Position numbers and translations under genes: made by a program. Of a DNA stretch of 53,686 nt, positions 859 to 12,365 are shown piece by piece. The stretch is from positions 1 to 53,686 of the forward strand of contig JBDREQ010000010.1 in the NCBI GenBank assembly GCA_043819555.1, in the 5' to 3' direction. The stretch comes from Candidatus Zixiibacteriota bacterium. GTDB taxonomy: Bacteria; Zixibacteria; MSB-5A5; GN15; JAAZOE01. The notes under the pieces are model-generated. The model worked only from the letters and a program-made list of their open reading frames with translations. It had not been told where the DNA came from and made no database searches. Each line of letters begins with the position of its first letter. Within the stretch, counting starts at the first letter, position 1.

Positions 859-3800
859 GTGAGGAGTTGTCTGATGCATCTCTCATTGCGAATCTTGTTT
901 TCAAGTGCCACGATACTTTTTTCTGTAATCGTCACGCTATGCCCTACTGTCACTCAAGCGGAAGTCTACGTCAACATGCTCTGGGATGAGCACACACAAA
1001 GCTACAGGGTGTCATCACTTGGCGGGGAAGGGAGTATCACGTTTGATCGTGACTATCAAAACTCCTACGGTGAGGAAAGAGACTTGGATCCGGGGCCACC
1101 GTTCATCGTTCAGTCAAGTATCCGGTTCGTGGGTGCCGTGTCTTTCGAATCGGGCGGTTTCGACCCGCTGAATCCTTTTGTGGTGCTGGTTCAGATAGGC
1201 GAAGGACACGACGGTCTGATCAGCGGCGGTGCCGGTGTCAATTTTGTTGGCACTTCGTTGGATCCGATTAGGGTTGAGGGTAACTACAAGATTCGATCCG
1301 GGATCGACTACCGATACCATAGTTTTCGATGGACCAATACCGAGTTCCGCTGTACTCACAGTGACATCACCGGGAACAGCACTCCATTTGCAGTAACCGG
1401 GGGATCGGCGCTGATTGAAGATTGCTACTTTCCCGACTATCCCCAGCCGTTCAACCAGCTGATTAGCCTGCTTGATTACGGTGCTGAAAATAGTTGTATC
1501 GTGACCATACGCAACTGTCGGTTTGAGCGCTGTGATTTTCCCAACCAGACCTACCCGATTATCGTGCGCGACGCCGCCGAATTTACGCTTGAGGACTGTC
1601 ATTTCGAAGATGTCAACTTCTGGGAGGACGATCTCAGCGCCTTGATGGACATCCGCGGATGCGGGATCAAGTCGATCAAAGGCAACACGGGTCACAATAA
1701 CAATCAAAACAAATTCCGCCTAGTCGGAGCTCGAGTGAAGGATTCGGCCTTCATCCGTTGCACCGAGAGCCTGCCGATTGTCTCAAGTACGATTACGGTC
1801 GATCCGGGGGCGGCGCTAGCGATCGGCCGAGGCTCGCTGATCAAGTTCCTGATCACCGGTGGGCTGGATGTCGGAGGGCAGCTGTATGTCGACAGTTCGA
1901 TCTTCACTTCAAATGAAGACGACGAGTATGGCGGAGACACCGATCATAAACCCCAACCGGATCCGTTTGTGGGGAACTGGTCGATCAACGGCGTTTGCGG
2001 TATCCTGGTTGACTCGACTGGCTCGGCCAACATTAGGCGGACGCTGATTCGCTACCCGCGAGCAGGCATATACGCCTTCAACCAGGTTACTCTGGACTCC
2101 TGTCAGTTCGTGGATGGCTGGTACTCTGGATTGGTGCTGCGCGGGGCGTACGAAGCGGATTTCAATATCACCAACACCACCATTAGAAATTACACGCGTC
2201 TGGACCCCTATACCGCCGCCATCTTCTATGAGAACCGCACTTTTCACCGCCAATCCCTGACCCTGGACAACGTGAGCCTCCTGTCCAACGCAATGGATGG
2301 CATAGATTTCTTCTACATGAGCGGCGGTCCCACCCGGGTCAAGTTGAACAATTGCCGCATCGCAGACAATACCGGGCGCGGGATAGTGTTCCCCATCAAC
2401 AATGCTCTGGAGAGCATCGATATCACCAACTCCGTCTTCGTCGGCAACGCCTACACGGCGATCGATGGGCTCGACAACTACGGTAGTGGTATCCCGATCA
2501 ACATCGAAAACAACGTGGTGGTCGGCAACGGGCATTACCAGAACGCCACTCGGCCGGACGGGATACACTTAGCCGGGGGTACCTGCCGTATAGTCGGCAA
2601 CACGGTTCTTCAGAACCACCGGGCTGGCATTCTGATCGAGGGCCTGGACAACATCGAGCAGTGTGTCGTGGCTAACAATCTGCTAGTAGGCAACGGCGAA
2701 TGGGGCTTGTACAAATCTGACTACGAAGCGCCGATAGTGGTTGGCAACAGCCACTGGGATAACGCCGATGAAACCCAGGAACTGCGCTACCGAGGGCCGG
2801 ACGGCTGGATTCACACGGTCGAAGAGTTGCAAGCGCTGGGCGGCGATTTCGTCACCAACATCCATGTTGCACCGGGGTTGTTGCCGGAGATTTCCGGTCA
2901 GATCGATACCGTGATTTATGACAGCCCCAGCGGGCTGTCGAAGCTTGTCGATGCCTCGGGGAGCTTCCCGTCGGCTGCGACACTGGCTGGCCGTTTCGTC
3001 TGTCCCGACACGTCCAATGTCAGCTGGAACTATCTCTGGAACGTATCCGGCGACACTCTGATGTTTCTGGGCGATATCAGAGAACATGCCGGCACCGGCA
3101 GCTTTTATCGAATGATTGATTTTCACCTGTCCGAGACTTCGCAGTTGATCGACGCCGGGTTCACGACCCAGACACAGGAGATGTTTGACATCGACGGCCA
3201 GGCGCGGATACTCGATGGTGATGAAAACGGCAGCATGCTGGTCGATGTTGGTGCTGATGAATTCGGCGGGGAAGACGCCGCGTCGTCGATTAGAGTCCTC
3301 CAGCCTTCGAGTGAGAAGCTGCTGGTGGCTTATGGGACCTTCAACATCGAATGGCAGGCGCCGGATAGTGTTGTCTCGGTCAATATTGCCTACAACAGCT
3401 CATACGACCCGGCTTACCCTGATGCCGGTTGGGAGACGATTGCTTCGGGCACCGATGCTAGTTCGGGGTATTACTCGTGGAGCATACCCGATAACGCCAC
3501 CACTATGACCTGCTATGTCCGGGTCGTGTCATCGGCTCATCCCGACATGATCGGGATGAGTGCGCCGTTCAAGATCAAGCACACCGGCCTGACTCGGATT
3601 CGAAACGATTCACTAATTACCTATTCCCATCCTGAGAATAGCTGGCAATTCTCGAACGATTCGGCCAATATGTGGCCGGTGGAAGCCTGGCCGTCGTACA
3701 TTCTAGACAACGACACTATAACCGGCTTCCCGTATCCACTCGAGTTTGCCGATATTAGAGCCAATTCCTCCGATTTTCCGAGTTGGCCGACTTTTGTCGA

Positions 3801-5484
3801 GGCGTTCGGTTTCGACGCCTGTTACTTCGATTACTGGCTGGGACCCCAGTACCGGCCATCGGCAGTCCTGCGCTGGGGGGCGATCAAGCGCAACTGGAAC
3901 GGTTCTTGTCTGGGGCTGGCCGTCACTAACCTGATGGCGTTCGTTGATTCGGCCGCCTTCGCCGATCGACCCGAAATCGGACCCTTCACTAATCTCAACA
4001 GCCTGGGTATGACTGACCAGCGCCGAAGGATGATCAGCCGGTACTTTACTTATCAATTCGGAAAGGCTAATCGCGACCACACCCGGACCGCACGCATCAA
4101 GACACCATCGGAAACCCTGGCCGAGCTGAGAAGCATGTTCAGCAGTATGGTGGCTTCGACAGCAGACCGCGTTATCACGATCTGCGACACCAGTTCGGTC
4201 AACAGCCGGGGGTGTCACACCGTTACACCTTATCTTCTCGAACGAGTCAACCAACAGGACAATACCTGGTCATTGCTGGTCTACGACAACAATGTACCGA
4301 ATGACTTCCCGACGATCGATTTCAACGCCAACACCAACAGTTGGACTTATGCCCAACTGGGCTTGTCGGGGGACAGACTGTTCTTCCTCGAGGATCCTTT
4401 GTCCAACTATGCCGATCCGGCAATAATGACTGCGGCGCCGAGAGAGCTGCCTCCCGTGGCCACCACCACCAGTGACTATTTTGAGATCTATCTGACGAAT
4501 GCTGATTCAGTCCGGCTCGAACTGGGTACGGGCGCAATCGGTCGATACCACGACTCGCTCTTCAACACCGTTCCAGGAGCAATGCCGATAATTCCTCGCG
4601 CCGACGGTCCGGGCGATCCGATCGGTTACCTGGTTCCCGAGGGGAATTGGTCCTGCCGCCTAGCAGGTGTGACGCGGGACCAGGCCCACGTCAGTGTGTT
4701 TTCCGACAGTGTGATCATGTCATATCGCCGCAACGGTGTAGTATCCACCGAGGCCGACCGCGTTGATATCAGAAGTGGTGCGGCCATGCATCTGATCAAT
4801 CCGGACGCTGCGGGCAGAGACTGTGATATCGACTTCGTATTGATCGCTCCCGACCGCGAACGAGTGCTGGCTCTCGACAATCTGCGCCTGGCCGCGTCCG
4901 ATTCCGGGACGGTTGAAGTCACTCAAGCCACCGGCTTACGGGTGACGAATTATGGGCCTGAGTCTGCCTACGACATCGTGCTGCGGGGTGTCGGCAATAG
5001 CGGGCTGCGGGAGTTCACTCACGAGAACGTTACTCTGGAGGCCAACTCAGTTCATCAGTTAGAGCCGGACTGGGTCGACTTAGGCCGCGAAGACCTGATG
5101 ATTGTCATCGATCTGGGGATCAATGGTGTTTTCGAAGATACTATCTTCATAGCGAACAGCTCACCCACTGACGTGGATGACGATGAGTCAGGGACGATTC
5201 TGCCGTACCGGTTTGACTTATCGCAGAACTATCCGAATCCATTCAACCCGGTGACGACGATTGAGTACAGTCTTCCTGAGCGCAGTCATGTTACCATCGA
5301 AGTGTACAATGTCCTTGGCCAGAAAGTGCGATCACTAGTTGATCGCGAAGAGTCCGCTGGGTCTTACACCACAACATGGGATGGTAAGTCTGAAAGAGGG
5401 CAGTCGGTTTCAACGGGCGTTTATCTCTATCGCTTTCAGGCCGGGGATCACGTCGAAACAAAGAAGATGTTGCTGCTGAAATAG
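859..5484 (+). CDS. Large secreted protein: beta-helix repeats, choice-of-anchor-Q-like motif, Ig-like domain, papain-like domain, FlgD-Ig/T9SS-type C-terminal domain
   Basis: Signal peptide; N/G-rich parallel beta-helix repeats; DFHL..S..IDAG..DIDG..R..VDVGADE; C-terminal LSQNYPNPFNP..TKKMLLLK. Confidence 0.85.
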   Translation: MRSCLMHLSLRILFSSATILFSVIVTLCPTVTQAEVYVNMLWDEHTQSYRVSSLGGEGSITFDRDYQNSYGEERDLDPGPPFIVQSSIRFVGAVSFESGGFDPLNPFVVLVQIGEGHDGLISGGAGVNFVGTSLDPIRVEGNYKIRSGIDYRYHSFRWTNTEFRCTHSDITGNSTPFAVTGGSALIEDCYFPDYPQPFNQLISLLDYGAENSCIVTIRNCRFERCDFPNQTYPIIVRDAAEFTLEDCHFEDVNFWEDDLSALMDIRGCGIKSIKGNTGHNNNQNKFRLVGARVKDSAFIRCTESLPIVSSTITVDPGAALAIGRGSLIKFLITGGLDVGGQLYVDSSIFTSNEDDEYGGDTDHKPQPDPFVGNWSINGVCGILVDSTGSANIRRTLIRYPRAGIYAFNQVTLDSCQFVDGWYSGLVLRGAYEADFNITNTTIRNYTRLDPYTAAIFYENRTFHRQSLTLDNVSLLSNAMDGIDFFYMSGGPTRVKLNNCRIADNTGRGIVFPINNALESIDITNSVFVGNAYTAIDGLDNYGSGIPINIENNVVVGNGHYQNATRPDGIHLAGGTCRIVGNTVLQNHRAGILIEGLDNIEQCVVANNLLVGNGEWGLYKSDYEAPIVVGNSHWDNADETQELRYRGPDGWIHTVEELQALGGDFVTNIHVAPGLLPEISGQIDTVIYDSPSGLSKLVDASGSFPSAATLAGRFVCPDTSNVSWNYLWNVSGDTLMFLGDIREHAGTGSFYRMIDFHLSETSQLIDAGFTTQTQEMFDIDGQARILDGDENGSMLVDVGADEFGGEDAASSIRVLQPSSEKLLVAYGTFNIEWQAPDSVVSVNIAYNSSYDPAYPDAGWETIASGTDASSGYYSWSIPDNATTMTCYVRVVSSAHPDMIGMSAPFKIKHTGLTRIRNDSLITYSHPENSWQFSNDSANMWPVEAWPSYILDNDTITGFPYPLEFADIRANSSDFPSWPTFVEAFGFDACYFDYWLGPQYRPSAVLRWGAIKRNWNGSCLGLAVTNLMAFVDSAAFADRPEIGPFTNLNSLGMTDQRRRMISRYFTYQFGKANRDHTRTARIKTPSETLAELRSMFSSMVASTADRVITICDTSSVNSRGCHTVTPYLLERVNQQDNTWSLLVYDNNVPNDFPTIDFNANTNSWTYAQLGLSGDRLFFLEDPLSNYADPAIMTAAPRELPPVATTTSDYFEIYLTNADSVRLELGTGAIGRYHDSLFNTVPGAMPIIPRADGPGDPIGYLVPEGNWSCRLAGVTRDQAHVSVFSDSVIMSYRRNGVVSTEADRVDIRSGAAMHLINPDAAGRDCDIDFVLIAPDRERVLALDNLRLAASDSGTVEVTQATGLRVTNYGPESAYDIVLRGVGNSGLREFTHENVTLEANSVHQLEPDWVDLGREDLMIVIDLGINGVFEDTIFIANSSPTDVDDDESGTILPYRFDLSQNYPNPFNPVTTIEYSLPERSHVTIEVYNVLGQKVRSLVDREESAGSYTTTWDGKSERGQSVSTGVYLYRFQAGDHVETKKMLLLK

Positions 5485-5488
5485 GCAT

Positions 5489-5709
5489 AAAAAACGGTCA
5501 CAATTTGGTCACAGTGCCACGTAAGTCATTGTGCCGCAACGCGAGTATGGGATTCGATTCCCCACACCTACAATAGTATAAACTATTACAATAAAACAGT
5601 TTACCGGTCGGACGGGGGTAGCATACCCCCCACCGTCACGTTTGTAAGCCTATATCCCCCAATAACCCCGAATAACGTGAAACCATTCTGGTCACGATTT
5701 GGTCACAAT
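5489..5709 (+). repeat. attP-like junction repeat, copy 2
   Basis: AAAAACGGTCACAATTTGGTCACA...GATTCGATTCCCCACACC...GGTCACGATTTGGTCACAAT; homologous to copy 1. Confidence 0.9.
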
Positions 5710-5736: not shown

Positions 5737-6090
5737 TTATCGATCTGACCAGACCGCCAACTCATTTCCGGCCGGATCGGTGAAGTGAAAGCGTCTTCCT
5801 CCCGGAAACTCGAATATCTCCCGGACAATCTGCCCGCCGTTCAAAATAACTTGGGCTTTAACATCGGCCAAATCCGTAGAATAGAGCACGACTAAGGGAC
5901 CACCTGATGACACTTCCAACGCTACACTAAAACCTCCGGCTAATCGACCATCATTGAAGCTCGTGTAATCAGGGCCATAGTCTGTGAACTTCCAACCGAA
6001 GACCTTTGAGTAAAACCTCTTAGTCTCCTCAATGTCTGTGGCAAGAAACTCTATATAGTCCACACGGCAATCTTGCTCTACCTGGCTCAT
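5737..6090 (-). CDS. VOC/glyoxalase family protein
   Basis: VDYIEF..KRFYSKVFGW..EFPGGRRFHFTDPAGNELAVW. Confidence 0.92.
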   Translation of the reverse strand: MSQVEQDCRVDYIEFLATDIEETKRFYSKVFGWKFTDYGPDYTSFNDGRLAGGFSVALEVSSGGPLVVLYSTDLADVKAQVILNGGQIVREIFEFPGGRRFHFTDPAGNELAVWSDR

Positions 6091-6402
6091 CGCATCATCT
6101 CCTTTTCTTATCTACGTTCAAAGATATTCAAGCGATCATCACAATTATCCGCCTAAAATAGATTGCGAAACGATATTAAAGTTTTGTTAATACTCAAATT
6201 AAGAAGAAGAACGAAAACTGGCAATCACTTTCATGAGATCATAGCTCCAAACAACACCACTAAAAGCCGGCCGCTCCCCGGTAACAGTATTGTCTTTTTA
6301 TTGAATGCATAGTATATTTGTTAAATGAGAATAAATAGATCCACACCTGTTTACAGTTATAGCAGACTAAGAAGTTCATGTGCCCAAGAGTCATTCAGGA
6401 TA

Positions 6403-7527
6403 GTGCGTGCCATTTTGATCTTCTCCATTGCTCTTACATCATTTCCCGCCAGATTACTCGGTCAGGACTCACTACATACAGCCAATACTCCCAAGTTCGA
6501 GCTGCTATGGTCATTCGATACCGGTGGCTGAGTATTTGTTTCGCCCACGGTCGTGGGAGATGTTTTGTACATTGGTTCATGCGCTGGCACCTGCTATGCG
6601 CTTGATAGGCGATCCGGCCAGGTCCAATGGACATACGATATAGGCGAAGTGTCATTTCATGGTGAGCCCATTATATCAGACTCACTCTTGATCATTCCTA
6701 CAGATGGAAGATCTGGGGCAATCTATGCCCTGACTCTTAAAAAAGGACTTCTAATCTGGCAGTACGAAGCTGCTGATCGACCCGAGAGAATAGACGGATT
6801 TACCACCGATCTAGTGCTGGCTGGATCGGGAGTGCTCGGTGTGACAACGAGTGATGATGTTGTCTGTATGGACGCTGAAGATGGAAATGTAATATGGGAT
6901 TTTCCAGCGCTTGTGGTTCCCGATGGAAGGTATTGGAACGTAGGACCTGCAATTCGTGACACTTCGGTATTCTTCATCAGGTATGACGGCTGGCTACATT
7001 GCCTAGATTCGAAAAACGGAAGTGAGGTGTGGAGATCAGATCTTGCCATGAAACCTACGACAAACATGGTGCTTGATGATGATTGCATTTACGTCGGGGC
7101 AAATGATAGCACGATCTACAGAATTGCTCTAACTGATGGAAAAGTAATAAACAGTAAAAAACTCAAGGGACGACCGGGCTTGCAATTGGAGATTGTGGAC
7201 TCTTTGCTTTATGTCTTTACTCAGGAAGATCCTGACTTCACCGGCATGCTGAACCTTTCGGCTCTGAACAAAGATCTCTCACGTGTTGCATGGAAATCTC
7301 CCGCCTCGTATGACACACCTTGGACCATAAAAAAGGTATATGAATACAAAGATTGGATTATCACCGGCAAAGCAAATGGAGAGGTTTTATTTCTTGATCC
7401 ACTAACCGGTCATCAACATGGATCGATCAAAGTAAACGGAGAATTGAGAAGCATAGGTTTCAGTGGCACTGTCCTATATGTAGGCACTATGAATGGGATG
7501 GTCCATGCAATTAGGATGGATGACTGA
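6403..7527 (+). CDS. Secreted PQQ-like (BamB-type) beta-propeller protein with in-frame TGA at 6529-6531 (candidate selenocysteine; otherwise a pseudogene)
   Basis: ORFs 6325..6531 and 6553..7527 share a frame. GTG 6403 follows AGGA and gives a signal peptide. WSFDTGG*VFVSPTVVGDVLYIGSCAGTCYALD is one continuous PQQ repeat. Confidence 0.8.
6541..6560 (+). promoter_or_regulatory. SECIS-like hairpin
   Basis: TCGCCCAC-GGTC-GTGGGAGA; the GGUC apical loop begins 17 nt after the in-frame UGA. Confidence 0.6.
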
Positions 7528-7555: not shown

Positions 7556-7772
7556 AAAAACGGTCACAATCTGGTCACAATACGGTGTAAGTCCTTGTCC
7601 CACAATGCGAGTATGGGGTTGGATCCTCCCACCTCCAATAAGATAACTCATTACAATACAATAGATTACCGGCCGGCTGGGTGTATTATACCTCCCACCC
7701 TTGCGTTTGTAAGCCTATATCCCCCAATAACACCGAATAATGTGCAACCATTTTAGTCACATTTTGGTCGCA
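7556..7772 (+). repeat. attP-like junction repeat, copy 3 (core degenerate)
   Basis: AAAAACGGTCACAATCTGGTCACAA...GGGGTTGGATCCTCCCACCTCCA...AGTCACATTTTGGTCGCA. Confidence 0.9.
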
Positions 7773-11583: not shown

Positions 11584-11665
11584 AAAAACGGTCACAATTT
11601 GGTCACAACAGAGTGTAAGTTCTTGTGCCACAACGCGAGTATGGGGTTCGATTCCCCCTACCTCT
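11584..11665 (+). repeat. attR-like half site (left arm plus core only), copy 4, ending the array
   Basis: AAAAACGGTCACAATTTGGTCACAA..GTAAGTTCTTGTGCCACAACGCGAGTATGGGGTTCGATTCCCCCTACCTC; homology to copies 1-3 stops right after the core. Confidence 0.85.
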
Positions 11666-11729: not shown

Positions 11730-12365
11730 TTATTTATTTGATAATAAAGCGGCAATGACAGTGTGCGTTCCGAATTTGCCGGGAATTTCAACTGTGTTCA
11801 TCTCAATAATATTGAAAAAAGGCTTATACAATTCTCTCAATTCCAGCTCAGAAGAAAAATACAGGGTCGTTCCCAGGGGAGTCTCTCGATATTTTTCCGA
11901 AGTACCGAATGATTTATCTTCTTCACTGAAACAGACACTGAAATATTGGCCGTTTGCTTTCAATAATTTAAAGACATTTTCGATATATTTCGGCCTGTCC
12001 TTGGGGAAGATATGATGCAATACCTCCCAATCCATAGCCAAATCAAAGCCATTATGAAATTCCTTCAAATCACCCAGAAGATTGCGGGCGAAAAATTGGC
12101 ATTTTGTACCGGATTTTTCGGCCTGCTTTTTCGCATACAATATTGCCTCAGAGCTGATATCTATTCCGGTGACATCGAATCTATTCTGAGCAAGCCAGAT
12201 CGAATAATTGCCAGCTCCGCATCCCAAATCAACAATTTTGCCGGGTTTGATTTTTTCGGAATCAATAAGATTAATCAACAACTTGGGCGGGCTGGAAATG
12301 TTCCATGGAATTTTCTCAAGCGGAATATCCCGATAAATTTTATCCATCTGGTCACGAATATTCAA
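11730..12365 (-). CDS. Class I SAM-dependent methyltransferase (TPMT/TehB-like)
   Basis: VDLGCGAG motif [10 protein letters not shown]-terminal IPW motif. Confidence 0.9.

Follow-up and report, generated by a model that had tools for sequence, protein, structure and literature searches.

Positions 6403-7527 of the DNA stretch examined here (53,686 nucleotides of contig JBDREQ010000010.1 from a Candidatus Zixiibacteriota bacterium, assembly GCA_043819555.1; hereafter the window) very probably form one intact selenoprotein gene, in which UGA codon 43 would be read as selenocysteine (Sec) within a secreted beta-propeller protein of the pyrroloquinoline quinone (PQQ)-like type. A candidate selenoprotein had been proposed at this position in an initial annotation of the window, and the core of the proposal was supported by an alignment column conserved as TGA or Cys, by a covarying selenocysteine insertion sequence (SECIS) and by the presence of Sec machinery in the genome.

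The read-through frame, taken from GTG 6403 (an in-frame ATG at 6325 is an alternative start), comprises 374 codons with a single internal TGA at 6529-6531, corresponding to residue 43, and ends at the TGA stop at 7525-7527. In the list of open reading frames (ORFs), this region is represented by a 68-codon ORF (6325..6531) and a 324-codon ORF (6553..7527), both in the same frame. The translated junction across the TGA reads ...KFELLWSFDTGG-X-VFVSPTVVGDVLYIGSCAGTCYALD..., and the upstream context is ELLWSFDTGG. Pfam matches to PF13360 (96.8 bits; cut-off 27.6) and PF01011 (35.4 bits; cut-off 26.7) place the product in the PQQ-like propeller superfamily; the in-frame TGA within a secreted PQQ-like propeller that had been described was therefore recovered in a single frame, with both the PQQ_2 and the PQQ model above their gathering thresholds.

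Conservation of the in-frame TGA

Among 61 related genomes, six-frame searching identified three strong orthologues, at 41%, 30% and 30% identity to the window protein, and exactly one TGA is present in each. When all 285 genomes of the phylum were searched with a profile, full-length family matches were found in 10 genomes, and the Sec form was present in all of them; an eleventh genome (G151) carries a C-terminal fragment of a family protein at a contig end, and no family match was found by the profile search in any of the 13 other genomes of the window's own taxonomic family. In the protein-based search of the 285 genomes, selenocysteine (U) fell at the identical alignment column in 10/10 orthologues (27-38% identity), and the ten sequences share the motif (D/A)(T/S/A)GG-U-(V/I)(F/Y)xxP(A/T)V(A/V)...(G/A)SC(A/S)G...FH(G/S).

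A DNA pattern scan of species genomes, in which the GGTC loop and the pyrimidine/purine (Y/R) classes of two stem pairs were fixed and which finds hairpin-bearing copies only, yielded at least 117 loci. At least 115 of these are family members with the TGA, from other phyla too; the non-family matches were L102 (labelled Verrucomicrobiota) and L139 (labelled Ktedonobacter), and L123 is a frameshifted family member. Together with six phylum-search loci that are absent from the pattern matches, the family is present in at least 121 species-level genomes. The counts of 121 sequences and 69 intact copies used throughout rest on the matches listed from the pattern scan plus the phylum search. By their record titles, the 69 intact copies are labelled as Acidobacteriota, Gemmatimonadota, Candidatus Eiseniibacteriota, the window's phylum and one Bacillota-labelled bin. 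The family is large, and most of its carriers are bacteria of soils and sediments that have not been cultured.

Homologues lacking the TGA carry Cys at the U column. Three such sequences were found (locus L070 on contig C4 of genome G099, P0128 and P0147), and all three keep Cys60 and His86. Genome G099 carries the Sec form plus the TGA-free paralogue, which reads ...ETHG-C-LPHH...GTCARS...VHGNP; P0128 and P0147 are full-length, and P0147 reads DAGG-C-IFVTPTVVGD...AACSG...QFHADP. A comparison with homologues at this column had been proposed in the initial annotation, with Trp or variable residues as the outcome that would speak against Sec; the column holds TGA (10/10 orthologues) or Cys (three homologues), and neither Trp nor a variable residue was found there within the family. 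The cysteine of the GSC motif, which had been pointed out as lying in the same blade as the UGA, is likewise present and is invariant in 69/69 intact Sec members, and in PQQ-like proteins further removed from the family, GSDD, GGND or GSSK stands in place of GSCAG.

In a FastTree phylogeny of the 69 intact copies (unrooted, no approximately unbiased test), the window copy groups with those of G026 and G099 with a support of 99; copies from the phylum do not cluster together but are dispersed among those of Acidobacteriota. This placement hints at transfer or at old paralogy of the propeller selenoprotein genes. The taxon labels of these metagenome-assembled genomes (MAGs) need care: L091 and L115 carry the submitter label 'uncultured Ignavibacteriales' and L085 and L121 the label 'Candidatus Zixiibacteriota', and all four were placed in the window's phylum by genome search; a further family-bearing bin, L105, is labelled Heliobacteriaceae.

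A covarying hairpin downstream of the UGA

A hairpin begins 10 nt past the UGA and consists of CCCAC (6544-6548), a GGTC loop (6549-6552) and GTGGG (6553-6557); its loop begins 17 nt after the TGA, and these coordinates agree with those initially reported for the element. In the window copy, the five core pairs are followed by a G.A mismatch and a closing C-G pair. The GGTC loop is invariant in the ten protein-search sequences. Pair 34-41 is intact in every one of them, as A-U in five and as G-C in the other five, and pair 33-42 is C-G in six, U-A in two and U-G in two. The covariation score of the ten sequences was 0.397 compared to a shuffled mean of 0.196, with 0/500 shuffles reaching it and slid controls at or below 0.089, a result that carries the tool's own caveat that related sequences may outscore shuffles without any structure. 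The stem covariation forces a coupled amino-acid change, P-T-V-V vs P-A-V-A.

Across 121 distinct sequences, pair 34-41 is G-C in 57, A-U in 53, G-U in 2 and A-C in 9; pair 30-45, which is free in the pattern and joins two third-codon positions, is paired in 99/121 with six pair types; and pair 29-46 is paired in 103/121. The informative part of this set is limited to these last two pairs, 30-45 and 29-46, and to the pairing inside the fixed Y/R classes. Compensatory substitutions, some of them at synonymous codon positions, thus maintain the hairpin, whose conservation the initial annotation had proposed to check. No hairpin is present in the Cys paralogue L070.

The consensus for bacterial SECIS (bSECIS) elements comprises a loop of 3-9 nt, a stem of 4-16 bp, a G in the first two loop bases, a spacing of 16-37 nt and a minimum free energy of -7.5 kcal/mol or lower (PMC13188914). 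The hairpin in the window falls within every one of these bounds, with a loop of 4 nt beginning with GG, a stem of 5-7 bp, a spacing of 17 nt and an energy of -8.1 kcal/mol for the hairpin alone (-12.3 kcal/mol when folded from the UGA). The SECIS of Salmonella fdhF, as quoted in PMC4489274, has a functionally important GGUC loop at positions 22-25 counted from the U of the UGA; the loop here is the same GGUC at positions 21-24, one nucleotide off, and the likeness to the fdhF loop that had been pointed out is correct for the element quoted there. In both genes the UGA is followed by a hairpin within the coding region, and in both Sec is paired with Cys in homologues, although fdhF encodes a formate dehydrogenase, to which the propeller protein is unrelated. 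Taken together, the hairpin is, as judged from its sequence, a predicted minimal bacterial SECIS of the type whose prototype is fdhF of Escherichia coli and Salmonella. It is by its conservation and covariation among relatives, and not by its energy, that the hairpin stands above chance.

An extended lower stem suggested by RNAalifold, in which ACCGG upstream of the UGA would pair with CCGG in the Cys60 region, was rejected on account of frequent mismatches and no compensatory changes in the 121 sequences. Rfam gave no match in 6400-6700 at E values up to 10. A strict genome scan for TGA codons followed by GGU-loop hairpins within open frames returned this gene plus one probably chance match on contig C51, so that the GGUC type does not appear to be the general SECIS of the host.

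Sec decoding machinery of the host

The window genome (3.35 Mb, 79 contigs, 97% complete) encodes selA (485.7 bits), selB (322.4 bits) and selD (389.4 bits), all above their NCBIfam cut-offs; selA and selB are adjacent on contig C33, and selD lies on contig C63. A single tRNA-SeC(tca) was predicted by ARAGORN at C25:38574-38668. The Sec machinery whose absence would have meant that the UGA is not decoded in this host is therefore present in full. The selD gene (C63:76059-76982, minus strand) is itself a selenoprotein gene, with its TGA in SGAG-U-ASKIGP; its hairpin, which is GC-rich and has a G-loop, begins ~13 nt past the TGA, and the loop is unlike the GGUC of the propeller gene. Furthermore, selA is present in 5/5 tested family-bearing genomes of other phyla. 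Within the phylum, selA occurs in 264/285 genomes, and its co-occurrence with the family is uninformative there because selA is near-universal. By the standard bacterial pathway, SelB carrying Sec-tRNA(Sec) would bind the GGUC hairpin while the ribosome stands on UGA-43, and Sec would be inserted.

The comparative data show that the codon is translated and cannot by themselves name the residue, which leaves room for read-through of the UGA, or for a suppressor or near-cognate tRNA that inserts Trp, Cys or Gly there; the hairpin would then do no more than stimulate read-through. Such recoding is very unlikely given that Cys is aligned in 3/3 TGA-free homologues, that the loop is a SelB-type GGUC at an fdhF-like spacing in a genome with complete Sec machinery, and that TGA is an ordinary stop, terminating 15/37 window ORFs of at least 200 aa and 37/70 intact family genes; the last of these is also consistent with the initial argument that no global codon reassignment has occurred.

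Evidence weighing against the selenoprotein reading

Several observations weigh against decoding of UGA-43 as Sec in a functional gene, and the two limits on the covariation data given above belong among them. Early stops or frameshifts are seen in 11/81 loci with a visible gene end. Locus L088 has an in-frame TGA at codon 112 after U, where its close relative L077 has Trp; L147 has a TAA at codon 166 after U; in both, homology continues beyond the stop; and nine further family copies look frameshifted. The extra stops and the frameshifts are probably MAG assembly errors or decaying copies, and not second Sec sites. These 11 copies, and the TGA of L088 opposite the Trp of L077, also speak for the TGA in the window being a recent TGG-to-TGA nonsense change, a mark of a pseudogene or a sequencing error; however, the TGA stands in the same column in 10/10 orthologues and in at least 115 pattern loci, no Trp occurs at the column, and both flanks are open and conserved, and the probability of such an origin is close to nil.

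The hairpin itself is not prominent by energy. The fold of 6520-6600 is unremarkable (z = -0.14), with 82/200 shuffles folding at least as well, and the minimum-energy structure of this segment omits the hairpin; folds beginning at the TGA contain it. The fdhF element has a bulged U and an extended lower stem, whereas the hairpin here is a minimal 5-7 bp without a bulge, and at pair 10-72 of the candidate long-range lower stem, 59 sequences have GC but 31 have GG. Expression is represented by one metatranscriptome RNA contig of 210 nt over 6700-6908, at a depth of 2.35 and in one run of three, which lies downstream of the TGA, is too little to establish transcription across that codon and is possibly DNA carry-over; the other two runs gave no match to the gene. 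With regard to function, there is no conserved neighbour across the family, the largest neighbour cluster comprising 13/121 loci.

Fold, export signal and conserved residues

An AlphaFold2 model built from an 11-row alignment (predicted local distance difference test score, pLDDT, 88.1; predicted template modelling score, pTM, 0.84) has eight four-stranded blades, and only residues 1-27 are disordered (pLDDT <50). The N-terminus is hydrophobic in all 11 aligned family proteins, and none of the 11 has a twin-arginine motif. A cysteine in the lipobox is the criterion for a lipoprotein signal, and there is no Cys in residues 1-42 of the window protein and so no lipobox cysteine. From these features we infer that a signal peptide of the general secretory (Sec-type) pathway exports the propeller, which would leave a mature protein of ~350 residues.

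Among the 69 intact Sec members, which are 25-41% identical to the window protein, W36, G42, U43, P48, V50, C60, G72, H86, W165, G206 and G322 are invariant, and D101 (67/69), D136 (64/69) and R349 (64/69) are nearly so. In the model, the loop that holds Sec43 runs from the closing strand into the innermost strand of blade 1, strand A (residues 49-51). Cys60 comes directly after strand B of this blade (residues 54-59), in the predicted B-C turn, and His86 stands ahead of strand A of blade 2 (residues 90-92), in the entry loop equivalent to that of Sec43. In a standard propeller blade, the D-to-A loops and the B-C turns lie on one 'top' face around the central channel. Sec43, Cys60 and His86 are accordingly predicted to share the same top face, with Asp101, Asp136 and Arg349 nearby, a proximity that derives from blade topology and not from coordinates.

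The model also bears on whether translation simply ends at the UGA, in which case the locus would yield a 42-residue secreted peptide plus a separate cytoplasmic propeller beginning at GTG 6553. This is how gene callers annotate the region, and public proteins of the family follow the same pattern. The 8 closest database proteins in a word-indexed search (30-73% identity) all begin at or just past the U column. Among the best 150 matches of a representative-protein search, 23 consist of a single stretch of 311-358 aa with a start at profile positions 51-87, and the three of these that were inspected start 0-2 residues after U. Two more are the full-length Cys forms P0128 and P0147, and the other 125 are giant PQQ proteins with many repeats, so that overall match counts say nothing on the size of the family. 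One truncated member, of 343 aa, is publicly annotated as 'PQQ-binding-like beta-propeller repeat protein'. Two separate products are nevertheless argued against strongly, because the strand formed by residues 31-39 is the outer strand of blade 8 and the propeller cannot close without the upstream ORF that encodes it. Furthermore, the codon at GTG 6553 is GCG or GCA in 5/10 protein-search sequences; protein-level conservation extends across the stretch from the TGA to 6553, where neither P48 nor V50 varies; W36 and G42 are invariant upstream; and the signal peptide would be cut off from the propeller that it should export. Termination at the UGA with two products is therefore highly improbable, and the single read-through selenoprotein is retained as the reading of the gene.

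The best Foldseek match of the model is BamB (YfgL), the propeller lipoprotein of the outer-membrane BAM complex (E = 1e-23; TM 0.75-0.84), with which size and blade number agree, although the identity is just 16-18%. BamB is also the best NCBIfam match, at 95.5 bits for TIGR03300 (cut-off 285.2) and 80 for NF008351 (cut-off 423), and nothing in the genome scores above the TIGR03300 cut-off. Moreover, BamB is a lipoprotein according to the titles of its Protein Data Bank (PDB) entries, whereas the window protein has no lipobox cysteine; BamB is without the Sec/Cys/His motif; and the Sec form is patchy, occurring in 10/285 genomes of the phylum, which does not resemble the distribution of a housekeeping factor. 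Identity as BamB was rejected on the scores far below the curated cut-offs, the missing lipobox and the patchy distribution. PQQ-dependent dehydrogenases were similarly rejected, with TIGR03075 at 67.5 bits against a subfamily cut-off of 480.05. The eight-bladed fold is common to the window protein and the PQQ-like propeller enzymes, but the latter have ~500-600 residues compared to ~350 here, and their usual blade 1 turn is GSxDG, whereas the family has GSCxG with Sec ahead of the first strand. Tetrathionate hydrolase (6l8a, 7cqy), a cofactor-free propeller with sulfur chemistry, was matched by Foldseek at E values of ~1e-19 to 1e-20.

Proposed function and gene neighbourhood

In the exported protein, Sec43, Cys60 and His86 would form one top-face pocket with Asp101, Asp136 and Arg349. 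Sec43 would attack the substrate, Cys60 would resolve the intermediate via a selenenylsulfide, and His86 would serve as the base; a small sulfur, selenium or peroxide compound would be the likely substrate. On the strength of the model, we tentatively suggest that the protein is a periplasmic or extracellular oxidoreductase with Sec/Cys redox-couple chemistry, an assignment that we hold at somewhat less than an even chance.

Sec, Cys and His are classic soft-metal ligands, and the same gene with the same Sec decoding could instead encode a periplasmic metalloenzyme or metal-binding protein in which Sec43, Cys60 and His86 bind a metal (e.g., Cu, Zn, Ni or Hg). The three residues are invariant in 69/69 members and lie on one face by blade topology, several metal-linked selenoprotein families appear in the table of a 2026 review (PMC13188914), and the Foldseek match to the sulfur-chemistry propeller tetrathionate hydrolase is also compatible with a metal site. 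It should be noted, however, that no metal-handling gene is conserved nearby and that an apparent Sec-type signal without a twin-arginine motif would allow metal loading only after export; we hold a metal site to be somewhat less probable than the redox couple. Gene context favours neither redox nor metal chemistry because no neighbour is conserved.

In one group of loci, genes of selenium small-molecule metabolism stand beside the propeller gene. In the Pyrinomonadaceae-labelled loci L071, L074, L079, L088, L100, L124 and L147 (and partly in L077, L116 and L133), senA (NF041186) and senB (TIGR04348; 360 bits, cut-off 300) lie directly upstream on the same strand, and a small cupin-like ORF is also found upstream of the propeller gene with senA-senB. 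In the Thermoanaerobaculia-labelled L123, SenA (519 bits; cut-off 420) is encoded three ORFs downstream. The adjacency is confined to the Pyrinomonadaceae-labelled loci plus L123, and the window genome has no SenA or SenB above cut-off. The adjacency may reflect a link to selenium small-molecule metabolism, or lineage synteny. A more far-reaching idea, which we regard as improbable but worth stating, is that the protein represents a new class of extracytoplasmic enzymes that depend on selenium, with the top-face pocket as the active site, small sulfur or selenium compounds as substrates and a fold new to Sec use; if this were true, the senA-senB adjacency would reflect the handling of selenoneine or selenosugars outside the cytoplasm.

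Feature map and the repeat-bounded unit

The coordinates of the gene, its elements and the repeats that flank it are collected in Table 1.

Table 1. Positions in the window of the predicted selenoprotein gene, its elements and the flanking direct repeats.
Feature	Coordinates	Strand	Basis
Whole predicted selenoprotein gene	6403..7527	+	One frame; full-length orthologues align throughout; single eight-bladed model
Putative N-terminal export signal, ~residues 1-27	6403..6483	+	Sec-type, predicted from hydrophobic N-terminus and low pLDDT
Residues 31-39, outer strand closing blade 8	6493..6519	+	AlphaFold2 strand, upstream of the TGA
Predicted Sec-UGA codon, residue 43	6529..6531	+	Column-conserved TGA; Cys homologues
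Predicted SECIS hairpin (5' arm 6542-6548, GGUC loop 6549-6552, 3' arm 6553-6559)	6542..6559	+	Covariation; bSECIS criteria
Cys60 codon TGC, GSCAG motif, turn after blade 1 strand B	6580..6582	+	Invariant; follows strand of residues 54-59
His86 codon CAT, FHG(D/E)P motif, loop before blade 2 strand A	6658..6660	+	Invariant; retained in Cys forms
Upstream direct repeat	5490..5707	+	Repeat comparison; holds tmRNA 3'-end look-alike
Downstream direct repeat, 81% identical to 5490-5707	7556..7772	+	Start-to-start spacing 2,066 bp

The two repeats bound a unit that consists of a divergent glyoxalase-family gene (5737-6090, minus strand) and the selenoprotein gene. Further copies lie at 299-515 and, as the first ~80 nt of another, at 11584-11664, and copies also occur on the short contigs C46 (1881-1960) and C60 (1857-1963 and 6502-6561) and at C71:31729-31779. 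The repeats are ~220-240 nt long and 81-84% identical, begin with AAAAACGGTCACAATTTGGTCACA and end with GGTCACGATTTGGTCACAAT; each holds a look-alike of the 3' end of the transfer-messenger RNA (tmRNA) gene (C71:31395-31752) together with its downstream flank. Gene units in the first 11.7 kb are set apart from one another by the repeats, and the arrangement looks like an array of accessory units beside ssrA-type attachment sequences. Positions 1 to 11.7 kb of the window have no DNA synteny in a same-genus genome, and 11738-14000 matches that genome at 81% identity.

The selenoprotein gene had been described as lying on a mobile cassette. The part of this description that stood is that the gene belongs to a repeat-bounded accessory unit within the non-syntenic 11.7 kb; no recombinase gene was found on the contig, none of the five tyrosine-recombinase matches of the genome being located there, and no mobility genes were detected by Pfam up to 14 kb into the window. 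At 0.42-0.48, the GC content of the gene is no different from the window mean of 0.46 and, being ordinary, gives no compositional sign of recent transfer. Mobility of the unit is plausible on the basis of the repeats.

Two neighbouring genes were also recorded. A gene at 859-5484 (plus strand), which forms a repeat-bounded unit of its own, has a GC content of 0.50-0.59 compared to 0.46 in the rest of the window. Its product of 1,541 residues contains a right-handed beta-helix region and, at the C-terminus, a sorting domain for type IX secretion. A methyltransferase gene with TPMT and TehB-like Pfam matches (11730-12365, minus strand) lies 4 kb downstream of the selenoprotein gene, on the border of the syntenic block shared with the same-genus genome; TPMT/TehB-like families are tied to thiopurine, selenium and tellurium methylation.

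Novelty and meaning of the probable propeller selenoprotein

The bacterial selenoproteins known so far are for the most part redox proteins with a thioredoxin fold, or else they belong as subunits to a small number of metalloenzymes. In Table 1 of a 2026 review (PMC13188914), prokaryotic selenoproteins are divided into 119 families and subfamilies, and no propeller, PQQ or BamB family is found in that table (section 7, parts 1-2) or in the main text. The protein described here is of the same class as the listed families, being predicted as a prokaryotic selenoprotein that has a single Sec, homologues with Cys in its place and a bSECIS. A UxxC or CxxU motif in a thioredoxin fold or a small redox protein is, however, what most of the listed families have, whereas Sec and Cys are here 17 residues apart on neighbouring strands. 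The terms propeller, PQQ, BamB and quinoprotein are absent from the available texts of deep-Sep (PMC12013277), BSepDB (PMC13326102) and a 2022 review (PMC9312934), and the searched portion of the BSepDB supplementary file contains none of them as protein terms. A search of the full-text literature on selenoproteins or selenocysteine together with beta-propeller, PQQ or BamB returned nothing relevant, recent papers on new families include no propeller family, and NCBIfam release 20.0 contains no model specific to the family. What is new is therefore the protein family and the propeller fold as a selenoprotein scaffold; the recoding mechanism is ordinary.

With an exported propeller of eight blades in which a Sec/Cys/His cluster is invariant, selenium use extends to a wider set of protein structures than before. 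The family also brings to light an error that annotation makes systematically, in that the public proteins of the family that were inspected are cut at the Sec codon and so lose the signal peptide and the first strand. Lastly, the gene offers a compact, testable case for selenium biology, since its minimal fdhF-like hairpin may be readable by Escherichia coli SelB.

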